A stretch of DNA of 64,000 nt from a candidate division KSB3 bacterium (lineage in GTDB: Bacteria > Moduliflexota > Moduliflexia > Moduliflexales > Moduliflexaceae). Shown here piece by piece: positions 30,523 to 34,085 of this stretch (positions within the stretch are counted from its first letter, which is position 1; the number at the start of each line of letters is the position of its first letter). The position numbers were made by a program, and so were the translations under genes. The DNA lies in NCBI GenBank assembly GCA_002748425.1, contig PDSJ01000010.1, positions 35,841 to 99,840 of the forward strand. The letters are read 5' to 3'. The notes beneath the pieces were generated by a model, which saw only the letters and a list, made by a program, of their open reading frames with translations, did not search any database and was not told where the DNA came from.

Positions 30523-30673
30523 ACAAAAACGCTCCTTGTGTTCATTGCACGATCTGAGGTGCCGGTTCATGAAGAGATCGGTTCGCTGAAACAGGTTCTG
30601 CTCTCTTGTCACACAAGCAGGCTGATTAGCCGCAGAACTCAGTACTGCGCGGCATTGCCTCAAAAAAAATTTC

Positions 30674-30691
30674 GCCGGGCTCACGCCCGGC
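30674..30691 (-). other. GC hairpin downstream of the NACHT-DUF1566 gene (possible DGR cis stem-loop or terminator)
   Basis: GCCGGGC-GTGA-GCCCGGC followed by GAAA and T8 on the minus strand. Confidence 0.6.
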
Positions 30692-30738
30692 CCGCTAAAA
30701 AACCTCAAATGAATCAACGCGCCAAAGATTCAAACAGG

Positions 30739-32913
30739 TCAGGAACGAACACACCGAACGTAGCCGCCGTACTGGAAGTAGCCCCAGTGCACGCCGCCGC
30801 CGCTGAAATTGACGCCCCACGCCGACCCCGACGAAGCTGCCACGCGGTCGGCGCTCCAGCACCAAAGCTGCCTTACATCAAAGATCGGATCGATGTAGAG
30901 TCCACTCGACGACCTCTCCGGGTCCAGCAGCGAGAGCAACTCTGGTATCGTTGGCAAGCGCCAGTCCGCAAAGCCGCCCCAGTTGACAGCATTCAGACCC
31001 TCAACATAGTCCGCAGCCTGCGCATAGCTTAGCCTCTCCGAGGACCCGGACTGCTGCCAGATCAGGCCGGTCGCACGGTCCAGGACCACATCGCCCTGGC
31101 GCTCGTACTGATTGTGGATGTACGCCAGCGGCCGCCACGCTGAATCCAGTTCAAAAATCCGCTCAAACTCTTCTGTCGAGACCGACTGCGCTGCGCTGCG
31201 CAAGTGAAGATCAGGAAGCTCTTCCAAGGCTCTCTTCAGCGCTTCCCGCAGGTCAGGATCGACCGTTAATGCTTCTTCCGCAATATTGCCGCCCAGCTTC
31301 AATGCGCCTGCGGTGCCCAGGTCCATACAGGTCCGTATCAACGGGCTTGCGTCTGCGACTTGCGCAGCATAGAGACGCAAGACCTCATGCCACCAATCGT
31401 CATGAATCGCAGCCCGCCAATCCTGTTCATCAGAGGAACGCTCCTTCCAGGACGCAGCGCACAAATATTCCTGAAAGGTCAGATGCGCAAAGCCCCAGAC
31501 CCCACTTTCCTGCTCCAGCAGCAGGCCGCTTTCGTCCTGCAGTTTTGTCAGAAAATCCAAGACCTTCTCCTGACCCACGCGTTTCAAATGCGGGTCCATG
31601 AGCGCCTGCAGCTCTTCAAACGGCAGGGTCCTGAGCTGGCGCGCCATCATACTTTCAGCTACAGGATACAAGACCGCCCGTTTCTGGGCAGCGCTCAACT
31701 CGTCGTCAATGCCTTTGGCGCTCTGCCAGTGCTCCAGGAGCACATCACAAATCTCAGCATAAAGCTCCACCCGGCGTTTAGGCAGGGCCCCGCGATAGTT
31801 ATGCACATTTGCAATCATGGTCAGCAGCAGCGGATTCACAGTGAGTTTTTCCAAAGCCGGCTGTGTGCGCAAACGCTCCAGCAAGTCGTCAGCCTCCAGA
31901 TCTGCATCACGTTGTATGCCAGGATCATCGATGTCTGAAGAGAGTATCATGGTGGCCAGATACCAGTTGCGCACAAAACGCTCAGCCTGCTCAGAGCTGA
32001 ACGGCAGCACTTCCAGGACCTGAGCCCGGTTCAGCGGCGTCTCAACATAGCCTTTTGGCCGGGCTGTCAAGACAAAACAGCAGTTCGGATAGGCGACGAT
32101 TTGGCGGTCCACCCATTTGACAACGCTGTTCCGCAGCGTTTCCGCGACTTCGTCCAGGCCATCCAGCAGCACGAGACAGCGCCCGGCCCTGAGCTGCTTC
32201 TGAAACCAGGTCGCAGGCGGCTCCAATTCCGGATAGCGTTTTGGGTTGGCAAAATGGGCCTGCGCCAGCTCTGCCAGAGTTGGAGATTCATCATGAATGG
32301 TCCGGGCGTGCTCTCGTAAGAAGAGCAAAATCGGCACAAAGGCACGGAGATGGTAGCGGCGCTGCTTGTTGCCTGCAAAGGTCAGCGCCAGATACTTCAG
32401 CAGCGTGCTTTTCCCGCAACCGGGCGGGCCCAGAATCGCCAGCGCCACTGCCTTCTGGCTTTTGAGGCGCTGCAGAAACGTCCATACCGTCTGGCTGCCG
32501 GGCAGCGATTTGGCCTCCAGAGGATTGGAGCTGACCTGCGAGGCATGGCTGGGCGCAAGCTGCAGATCAACAAAGACCTTGGTCAACGCGAGCTGCGCCC
32601 GCGCAGGAGTGCGCAGACCACGTGTGCCAATCCCCCGGTGGTCGTATGTCACATGCTTTTTATAGCGTTTCCGAAAACCGGAAAATGCGTTGAGGATACT
32701 GGTTTTGATCCAGTCTGTCAGCGCTTTCACCACATCTGGCTTGAGTGCTTCCCACACATCCCGGCCCACAAAACCCCAGACAAAGATCAGCAGCTCATAA
32801 CTGCCAGCCAGGATCACGGCTGCGAGCGGCTGTTGCCGCCAGAGCAGCGCAGGGGCAAAGAGCGGGATTTGCGAGCACAACAACAGCACGGACTTTTTGA
32901 ACGTCTCCCCCAT
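30739..32913 (-). CDS. NACHT NTPase with N-terminal hydrophobic helices and C-terminal DUF1566 (Lcl-C, C-type-lectin-like) domain
   Basis: GPPGCGKST, LVLLDGLDEV, NPLLL, FAHLTFQEYL; DRATGLIWQQ, DWRLPTIPEL, YVRCVR. Confidence 0.88.
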   Translation of the reverse strand: MGETFKKSVLLLCSQIPLFAPALLWRQQPLAAVILAGSYELLIFVWGFVGRDVWEALKPDVVKALTDWIKTSILNAFSGFRKRYKKHVTYDHRGIGTRGLRTPARAQLALTKVFVDLQLAPSHASQVSSNPLEAKSLPGSQTVWTFLQRLKSQKAVALAILGPPGCGKSTLLKYLALTFAGNKQRRYHLRAFVPILLFLREHARTIHDESPTLAELAQAHFANPKRYPELEPPATWFQKQLRAGRCLVLLDGLDEVAETLRNSVVKWVDRQIVAYPNCCFVLTARPKGYVETPLNRAQVLEVLPFSSEQAERFVRNWYLATMILSSDIDDPGIQRDADLEADDLLERLRTQPALEKLTVNPLLLTMIANVHNYRGALPKRRVELYAEICDVLLEHWQSAKGIDDELSAAQKRAVLYPVAESMMARQLRTLPFEELQALMDPHLKRVGQEKVLDFLTKLQDESGLLLEQESGVWGFAHLTFQEYLCAASWKERSSDEQDWRAAIHDDWWHEVLRLYAAQVADASPLIRTCMDLGTAGALKLGGNIAEEALTVDPDLREALKRALEELPDLHLRSAAQSVSTEEFERIFELDSAWRPLAYIHNQYERQGDVVLDRATGLIWQQSGSSERLSYAQAADYVEGLNAVNWGGFADWRLPTIPELLSLLDPERSSSGLYIDPIFDVRQLWCWSADRVAASSGSAWGVNFSGGGVHWGYFQYGGYVRCVRS

Positions 32914-33052
32914 TCCCTCCTCCTCTTTCTCAACACACGCTTCAGTCCTCTTCTCGGCTCGGCCGCATGCCGTCACATAAAAGCGCTCTGCACAATTCCG
33001 CCTTTTTCCCGCAAGACATCATGTTCTTCGCATTCCCGCCGCTTTAACCGTT

Positions 33053-33934
33053 TCAAGAGCTGCGCTGGAATTGGTACGATAAATAGACAGCCACTCCAAG
33101 CCCTTTTGCGTATTGAGTCACTCCAGGTTCGCTCTCCATGTGGGCAACGATGACCGGAAAGATGCTTTGGCCGTCTGTTTCGAACTGTCGGATACGCTTA
33201 TTGAGAAACTGATCGACATACTTTCGAGAAAGCTGAAGCTTGCTCTCTCCTATCAAGAGGATCGCTTCTCCAGCGCGCTTGGCCTGGCCCAGGATATTGA
33301 TTTCCATCATGACTCCCTTTTTATTCCTCAACCAATCGCGACGCAAGGGTTCCGTCAGCTCGATTCCCCAATCCCGGAAGAGTAAATCAGGCAAAAAACG
33401 ATAGGCTTCATTTTCAAGCGTGTAGCCGACTGTCATATTCAGGCCGCCCAACTGCTTATTATTCTGATCCAGACGTTTTGAAAGCTGTAATATGCTCTTT
33501 TCCGTACGTTTCTGGGCTTCTGCCAGCTCATCAACACGGATTTCCGTACGCTTTTGAGCCTCTGCCAGCTCTTCAAGGCGGAGTTCCGTGCGTTTCTGGG
33601 CTTCAGCCAGCTCTTCAAGGCGGACTTCCGTGCGTTTCTGGGCTTCTGCCAGCTCTTCAACACGGATTTCTGTACGTTTCTGGGCTTCTGCCAGCTCTTC
33701 AACACGGAGTTCCGTGCGTTTCTGAGCTTCAGCCAGCTCATCAAGGCGGATTTCCGTACGCTTTTGAGCCTCTGCCAGATCTTTTACGACATCTTTTAAA
33801 TCGGAGAATTCTTCTTTTGTGACGCTGTTACGCAGTTCTTCGTACATTGACGACATCACATTGACAAGCTTCCGCGCAGTCTGCGCTTCCATGGTCTTGG
33901 AGAGATCGTCATAAATCTGCAGGGTATCGAACAT
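33053..33934 (-). CDS. Coiled-coil repeat protein with PD-(D/E)XK-like C-terminus
   Basis: Seven LAEAQKRTE units, LGGL..TVGY.LE, EINILG..IGESK. Confidence 0.75.
33500..33781 (-). repeat. 42-bp in-frame tandem repeat, about 6.7 copies
   Basis: [10 protein letters not shown](I/L/V)R(L/V)(D/E) units, near-identical at DNA level. Confidence 0.92.
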
Positions 33935-34085
33935 CTTTTTATCTCCAAATCTTGAAATTTTTGTCTTCTGAAAAACAGGGCCAGGGAGCCACAAAAAAAG
34001 TCATGACGCTGTCTTGCTTCGTCAAGTTTTTTCTGAACAGAAGGAGAAAGTAGAAAAAAAAGCCGCTGACGGCCTGAATTTCTCC

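Follow-up and report, generated by a model that had tools for sequence, protein, structure and literature searches.

The DNA analyzed here, a 64,000-nt stretch from a candidate division KSB3 bacterium (hereafter the window; G000:C3:35841-99840, where G000 is the binned assembly of 72 contigs and 3.41 Mb, 93.8% complete), carries at positions 30739-30835 of the minus strand a segment that, judged from its sequence, is very probably a genuine variable repeat (VR) of a diversity-generating retroelement (DGR). The segment closes a gene for a protein resembling the NOD-like receptors (NLRs), and a template repeat (TR) that fits it was found on L057, a 2,367-nt metagenome contig lying outside the binned genome. 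Sixteen mismatches separate the window VR from this TR, and all of them (16/16) fall on template adenines while none of the 72 non-adenine positions is changed; the hypergeometric point probability of this pattern is 2.6e-12. The match to the TR at every non-adenine position shows that the window VR was written by mutagenic retrohoming from such a template.

The repeat had been proposed before any template was known, in a sequence-only reading that took the codon pattern at the end of the gene as the trace of adenine mutagenesis, and the placement of all sixteen mismatches on template adenines bears that proposal out. A recount gave the same figure as that reading, with fifteen of the nineteen codons between W and VRC ending in C, against a gene-wide share of 27.4%. 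Only one of the 727 sliding windows of nineteen codons reaches fifteen C-ending codons, and all six windows with at least thirteen of them lie at the same place. The template that had been predicted, AWNVNFNNGNVNWNN..NNNYVRCVR, agrees almost exactly with the TR that was found, SAWNVNFNNGNVNWNNFQNNNYVRCVRS. The repeat and its 3' end are located as follows.

30739..30835, minus strand: DGR variable repeat of 97 nt, stop codon included; substituted at 16 of 25 template adenines
30739..30765, minus strand: 3' end of the VR, almost without adenines (TACGTTCGGTGTGTTCGTTCCTGA region)

The letters of the 3' segment are the same in the TR and in seven of the eight distinct VRs described below. By analogy with the BPP-1 model, as given in the consulted part of PMC3240598, this segment is likely an anchor similar to the initiation of mutagenic homing (IMH) site, at which priming of the cDNA and its integration would start.

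The template cassette came to light in a scan of metagenome contigs for which the adenine-poor last 21 nt of the VR served as query and which returned seven loci. Read on its minus strand, L057 contains in order a VR 3' end with spacer and hairpin, a bAvd gene, the TR and a reverse transcriptase (RT) gene. The bAvd gene encodes 128 aa (PF22296, 5.5e-13). The RT (L057:3-1415, minus strand) has at least 471 aa, its frame being open at the contig end, and shows an RVT_1 domain (1.1e-20) with the YVDDF motif present and a C-terminal MutS_I domain (2.4e-11). The TR itself is 97 nt long, has 25 adenines and translates as SSGSAWNVNFNNGNVNWNNFQNNNYVRCVRS followed by a stop. Between the TR and the RT (L057, minus strand, 735-950) two distant segments, GCCTGCGAAACACGCA and TGCGTGTTTCGCGGGC, seem complementary by eye and may correspond to the structured spacer RNA of a DGR. 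A search of Rfam at gathering thresholds gave no match on L054, L009, L056 or L057. Relatives of the L057 RT occur at six loci among the species-representative genomes, the best of them reaching 71% identity in a 196-aa fragment and, at full length, 51%. The full-length relatives (45-51% identity) are found in metagenome-assembled genomes labelled Desulfobacterales, KSB1 and, in one case, only 'bacterium'; at the KSB1 locus (L060), Lcl_C-like target ends (...YVRAVRS) are present.

The window VR is not the only repeat that fits this template. A TR-fit scan of all G000 contigs and of L052-L058, allowing up to eight non-adenine mismatches, found eight distinct VRs for the L057 TR, namely the window VR, one on contig C46 of G000 and six on metagenome contigs. 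The seven VRs other than that of the window compare with the TR as follows.

VR on C46 (= L058): 19 mismatches at TR adenines, 0 elsewhere
VR L052b: 15 mismatches at adenines, 0 elsewhere
VR L052a: 17 mismatches at adenines, 6 elsewhere
VR on L053 (= L056): 18 mismatches at adenines, 0 elsewhere
VR L054a: 19 mismatches at adenines, 2 elsewhere
VR L054b: 10 mismatches at adenines, 0 elsewhere
VR L055: 13 mismatches at adenines, 0 elsewhere

In the DNA of the domain, the paralogues whose VRs match the TR at 72 of 72 non-adenine positions share only about 71% identity with the window, a combination that repeated overwriting from one template produces and that ordinary divergence does not explain. 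The proteins that end in these repeats are of several kinds. L054a and L055 belong to TIR-Lcl_C proteins. The protein of L054b, 744 aa long, combines NACHT and Lcl_C in the arrangement of the window gene, and in the L056 target an in-frame stop interrupts the NACHT gene and an Lcl_C part comes after it. Two Lcl_C domains were found on L052, where the reading frame adjacent upstream is a caspase-like candidate, as read by eye. A single TR would accordingly be shared by VRs on NACHT-, TIR- and caspase-like proteins and, with at least eight VRs having this TR in common, the window gene would be one remote member of a hypervariable sensor repertoire. By arithmetic from the TR, about 1e14 protein variants are possible per VR. 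In the NACHT-Lcl_C gene just downstream of the RT, the in-frame stop lies at L056:1117-1119, between the NACHT part and the rest of the gene; L053 and L056, which come from two assemblies, show the same boundary of the open reading frame (ORF), with the frame reopening at AYVLEV...

The VR on C46 allows a direct comparison within the binned genome. With a 301-nt query over the window VR, one other place was found in G000 (C46:580-880, 90% identity). This copy is the 3' end of a different gene, inside which contig C46 begins; L058, which extends 309 nt further upstream of the C46 copy, resembles by eye the C-terminal part of a NTPase of the STAND type (signal transduction ATPases with numerous domains; ...FSHKSILEYFLA...). 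The likeness of the window and C46 copies begins about 160 codons ahead of the stop and extends to the T-run past the hairpin. Their VRs differ at 15 of 97 nt, all of them TR-adenine positions and none of them a third codon position. Outside the VRs, 12 of the 171 nt upstream and 6 of the 78 nt downstream are different. At this flank rate of about 7%, some five differences would be expected among the 72 non-adenine positions of the VR, where none was seen. C46 and L058 come from two assemblies of this population, and their only difference in 13.9 kb is a 28-nt indel (G000:C46:100-127) with no substitutions; it lies inside the second VR-bearing gene, which is frameshifted in L058.

Paralogue divergence under positive selection, combined with a local codon bias, might also be thought to produce a run of NNC codons with no DGR involved, and the flank differences between the two G000 copies are indeed mostly non-synonymous as well. 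Such an origin is contradicted by the confinement of all mismatches to the adenines of an independently found TR, the improbability of which was given above. This TR moreover sits between bAvd and RT, and eight VRs follow the same rule. We regard an origin without a DGR as highly improbable.

Past the stop codon of the window gene lie a spacer, a hairpin and a T-run.

30692..30738, minus strand: T/G-rich spacer, 47 nt, from the stop codon to the hairpin
30674..30691, minus strand: GC hairpin GCCGGGC-GTGA-GCCCGGC, 7-bp stem
30662..30669, minus strand: T8 run after GAAA past the hairpin, with the look of an intrinsic terminator

The hairpin is as the sequence-only reading had described it, with a 7-bp GC stem and the loop GTGA starting 47 nt past the stop codon. 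That reading had connected it with target recognition and had offered a plain terminator as the alternative. A spacer related to that of the window (TTTGA/TCTTTG motifs) is found 3' of every VR copy, and a GC stem follows at about the same distance past every copy and is itself followed by an A/T run. The stem sequences vary: the window has GCCGGGC with loop GTGA, C46 the same stem with GCCA, L052-L057 have CTGGGGC with GCA or CTTG, and G003, a genus-level relative, has CAGGGGG with CTTG. As the letters of the stem change but the pairing is kept, the hairpin structure is conserved. Phage DGR hairpins, according to the consulted part of PMC3240598, have a GC stem of 7-10 bp and a 4-nt GRNA loop and are separated from the VR by 4-34 bp. 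In stem (7 bp, GC) and loop size (4 nt) the window hairpin agrees with this description, whereas GTGA is not GRNA and 47 nt is not within 4-34 bp.

That the hairpin is solely the intrinsic terminator of the gene, with no part in retrohoming, has in our estimate close to an even chance, if slightly short of it. The GC stem is followed by T8 and was selected by a terminator scan (three sites in the region, with 3.1 expected in shuffled sequence); none of the loops (GTGA, GCCA, GCA and CTTG) is of the GRNA type, and the distance exceeds that of the phage elements. The stem and the related spacer are nevertheless kept in paralogues of about 71% identity and in G003, which belongs to another genus, with the stem changed on both sides. 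Furthermore, Guo et al. proposed, in the part of PMC3240598 consulted, that DGRs may have evolved to target terminator-like stem-loops. Both roles, targeting of retrohoming and termination, are possible for this hairpin.

Several observations weigh against the reading of the window gene as a DGR target, in particular one whose core lies in the same genome. The values of the hairpin loop and distance, which lie outside those of phage DGRs, are one of them. The sequence-only reading had seen neither TR nor RT in the 64,000-nt window, and this was confirmed; the whole-genome search that it had suggested, for a template copy beside an RT or Avd gene, found none in the binned genome, and such a copy was met on the metagenome contig L057. 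No TR was found in the 72 contigs and 3.41 Mb of the binned assembly by BLAST at word size 7 or by an adenine-tolerant ungapped scan. The VRs of the window and of C46 were all that these whole-assembly scans returned, any further place having at least 32 mismatches in 135 nt, and the outcome was the same when the L057 TR was used as scan query over the G000 contigs. An RVT_1 search of the binned assembly likewise found no intact DGR RT, giving two matches, on C59 and C41. The C59 enzyme was rejected as a DGR RT as it is of the group-II type (RVT_N, RVT_1, GIIM) and stands beside Cas1 and a CRISPR leader. The C41 enzyme was rejected as the source RT, being a broken DGR-type RT that belongs to a target of the FGE type; it is a fragment of 190-205 aa behind a bAvd gene, with the YVDDF motif out of frame downstream. 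The C41 region outside the window (G000:C41:1046-4160, L069) holds a caspase and FGE-sulfatase target, bAvd and the cut RT, followed by a caspase-DUF4384 gene. No TR was seen on the C41 contig by reading alone, and no TR scan was made there. By its gene content this locus is a second, decayed DGR with another type of target.

Overlaps between contig ends bear on where the intact cassette lies. Six G000 contig pairs overlap by exactly 99 nt, the mark of one k=99 assembly graph. An overlap of the same length, exactly 99 nt, ties the end of the metagenome contig L054 to that of G000:C59, and it falls within a unique CRISPR leader. The CRISPR array on L054 (L054:5138-10144) has 68 repeats with a 36-nt unit, and the C59 end (G000:C59:124000-136082, L070) carries RAMP, Cas6, Cas1 and the group-II-type RT, an operon that looks like an RT-associated type III system. 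Because the overlap falls in a unique leader and the matching cas operon is on C59, L054 with its two VR targets is part of this genome; the contig break at the end of the leader could reflect spacer polymorphism. A repeated element of 51-nt tandem units is also present on L054 (L054:4882-5073), with copies 88-97% identical on C50, C39, C72, C23 and C48.

L054, although tied to this genome, adds to the evidence against a resident core, as it carries a DGR locus from which avd, TR and RT have been deleted. Between its TIR-Lcl_C and NACHT-Lcl_C genes (L054:1467-1798), about 100 nt from the start of avd run directly into the final 99 nt of the RT gene. These remnants are 94% identical to L057 over 220 nt at avd and 98% at the end of the RT gene. 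In favour of a cassette in this genome, on the other hand, the sequences flanking the VRs on L054 match those around the cis VR of L057. The intact cassette itself (L057) is connected by a 99-nt overlap to L056, which represents the L053 locus: the two contigs show two mismatches in 1,649 nt, both at a contig end. The overlap of L055 with L057 measures 92 nt and not 99; L055 is a candidate cis target of L057.

The genes adjoining the intact cassette count against its residence here as well. The GHMP-kinase/GalU pair beside it on L053 is 73-75% identical to the G000 copy and stands at an equal distance from all genera of the family; with a membrane protein included the range is 73-76%. The L053 neighbour genes are 72.6-75.0% identical to G000, compared with 73.8-74.8% between genera of the family and 80.5% within one genus. 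They are thus as far from G000 as genera are from each other, and therefore resemble genes of another genus. In addition, L053 ends inside a unique gene, which suggests a lower coverage than that of the G000 population, from which the same assembly yields a 72-kb contig. Finally, the VR consensus was the same in two assemblies at both loci compared (C46/L058 and L053/L056), which counts weakly against fast turnover of the dominant allele and says nothing on minority variants.

Taken as a record of loss, these observations would mean that the window VR was written by a DGR whose template and RT then disappeared from this genome, leaving the VR frozen, and that the intact L057 cassette is owned by a co-occurring relative of another genus or by a strain variant. 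We hold this for a serious explanation, though one falling somewhat below an even chance. The remnant on L054, the cut RT on C41, the 73-76% identity of the genes next to the intact cassette, the low-coverage ending of L053 beside a 72-kb contig of the G000 population and the unchanged VR consensus are all in its favour, and the non-adenine mismatches in L054a (two) and L052a (six) look like decay. Three VRs speak otherwise: those of the window, C46 and L054b each have 0/72 non-adenine mismatches. Since L054 and L057 are 2-6% apart in what is left of the cassette, VRs with no non-adenine mismatch must have been overwritten after those loci diverged. Moreover, no species-representative genome holds the L057 RT at more than 71% identity, and repeat-filled contigs of 1.7-2.6 kb are normally left out of bins.

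In favour of a cassette in this genome are the 99-nt junction of L054 with C59, the perfect non-adenine match to the TR of two VRs on large binned contigs (window and C46) and the result that no species-representative genome holds this RT beyond 71% identity. On balance of the sequence evidence, the chances are about even that the intact cassette is an unbinned island in this genome or an intact twin in a co-occurring relative, and it is equally about even that it lies in this very genome and is still active. The narrower scenario, a recent loss of the genome's own diversifier beside the CRISPR array with the intact twin in a co-occurring relative of another genus, seems to us rather unlikely. 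If it were true, a whole locus of DGR and sensors would have moved recently between related bacteria, and frozen NLR-like sensors would have been left behind.

Templates of the same kind were observed in relatives. With a 501-nt query, matches were found in seven of the 61 genomes searched, G000 included, and in four of the six other family members. In G003 (L036:10120-10700 of C10) a TR (...SAWNVNFNNGNVNWNNLNNDNYVRCVRSGK) stands 360 nt downstream of an Lcl_C target; it differs from its own VR by 13 mismatches in 104 nt, 12 of them at adenines as read by eye. The TR 3' flank opens with ATGATACTGTCCG both in L057 and in G003. A similar Lcl_C VR/TR pair occurs in G006 (C8:~512500, L046), and in G003 and G006 the TR stands 140-360 nt past the target. 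The G003 TR was rejected as the source of the window VR on account of 11 non-adenine mismatches, from which it follows that TRs drift between genera. No RT was found within 10 kb of the TR in G003, and there was no RVT_1 match near the TR in G006. As the A-rich repeats at those RT loci that were inspected in the two genomes look to be of the FGE type, a distant RT may work with these Lcl_C TRs. The DGR-type RTs of G001, G003, G004 and G006 are 37-41% identical to the L057 RT, and no match reaches its MutS_I part.

The target gene of the window and its domains have the following positions.

30739..32913, minus strand: target gene, NACHT with C-terminal Lcl_C, 724 aa from the ATG at 32913
31963..32439, minus strand: NACHT domain PF05729 (Pfam, residues 180-338, 2.7e-17)
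30745..31089, minus strand: Lcl_C/DUF1566 domain, C-type-lectin-like fold (Pfam, residues 630-744, 3.3e-24)

The longest ORF starts with a GTG at 32976 (30739..32976, minus strand, 745 aa), and the ATG at 32913, which has GGAGG ahead of it, is likely the true start. The earlier description of an NLR-like gene with a DUF1566 C-terminus agrees with these Pfam assignments. Walker A (GPPGCGKST) and Walker B (LVLLDGLDE) motifs were read from the translation of the NACHT domain, and the protein ends in ...SAWGVNFSGGGVHWGYFQYGGYVRCVRS before the stop. An NTPase and a C-terminal sensor are thereby present. At the N-terminus, where an effector would be placed, the Pfam scan gave no domain; two hydrophobic stretches, read by eye, are candidate helices. 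The last 150 residues were modelled with AlphaFold2 at a mean predicted local distance difference test (pLDDT) of 88 from an alignment of 15 sequences. The top PDB match of the model is the C-terminal domain of Legionella Lcl (8q4e, E 8e-4), followed by Bd2740 and then by many C-type lectin domains, and with TM scores of 0.4-0.6 the likeness holds at fold level only. The Lcl_C domain of the target thus models as a C-type-lectin-like fold. The neighbours of the gene encode GyrA, a TPR protein, TatC, a nitroreductase and FloA/NfeD. These are genes of the housekeeping type and the window gene is therefore a remote chromosomal target, as the sequence-only reading had it. A 313-aa ORF directly upstream of the NACHT gene (33053-33994, minus strand) has no Pfam match.

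For the reading of the window gene as a remote DGR target, a mechanism may be proposed. The C-terminal Lcl_C domain of the NACHT STAND NTPase would bind its ligand with the face that the VR encodes. On the BPP-1 model, a complex of RT and Avd would copy the TR RNA with misincorporation opposite adenines, and the resulting cDNA would replace the VR, with the adenine-free 3' end as the anchor and the spacer and GC hairpin possibly helping. Following published work, the variable lectin face would then sense a ligand, probably of an invader, and binding would switch the NACHT NTPase so that an N-terminal membrane-associated effector is released.

Sensors of this general design are already published. 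In the consulted part of Dore et al. 2024 (PMC10907252), DGR targets of multicellular bacteria have a central NACHT/nSTAND NTPase, a diversified C-type lectin (CLec) domain and sometimes TIR or peptidase N-termini, and incomplete DGR loci and remote targets are described as likely served in trans. With respect to NACHT-CLec sensors diversified by a DGR and to targets in trans, the window case is a further example of what that article reports. DGR 3 of Thiohalocapsa PB-PSB1 and clade 5D, among the closest known systems, share the central NACHT with a C-terminal diversified CLec, several targets per element and sister targets with TIR or peptidase N-termini. Unlike the sensors described in that part of the article, the CLec here is of the Lcl_C/DUF1566 type, the RT has a MutS_I domain, the core cassette is outside the bin and the lineage is another; neither 'DUF1566' nor 'MutS' occurs as a word in the main text of PMC10907252.

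Wu et al. 2018 (PMC5758913), in the part consulted, place DUF1566-type VRs in category d (CLec2), e.g. Legionella LdtA. They also describe remote targets at distances above 100 kb, a C-terminal MutS_I-like extension in three RTs and a MutS-related function accompanying some DGRs. The system described here resembles category d in having the VR over the DUF1566 motif at the C-terminus and Avd present. Category d targets, as given there, are mostly short or are surface and adhesion proteins, whereas the domain here is found on NACHT, TIR and caspase-like proteins. The DGR of Treponema denticola, cited in the same source with seven non-adjacent targets, is similar in that one TR serves many dispersed targets and differs in the fold family of the target, the host lineage and the target architecture. 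Compared with the BPP-1 DGR and its mtd VR, as far as the consulted part of PMC3240598 goes, the adenine-specific TR-to-VR pattern, a conserved anchor at the 3' end and a GC-rich stem-loop past the VR are shared. A (GC)14 element is not evident here, and the stem-loop departs in having a loop other than GRNA, a distance of 47 nt instead of 4-34 bp and a T-run behind it. Particular to the present case are the Lcl_C VRs on NACHT, TIR and caspase-like proteins, the number of VRs per TR (at least eight) and a core that lies outside the bin with a deleted twin in the genome.

The window case shows that the VR by itself is enough to recognize a DGR target, the prediction of the template having been right at nearly every residue ahead of its discovery. 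Binning, as the case further illustrates, can strip a genome of its DGR core: the short, repeat-rich contigs that hold the core drop out of bins, and a target gene can then look 'orphan'. A DGR with multiple Lcl_C targets adds weight to the view, already in print, that NLR-like sensors are hypermutated in some bacteria.

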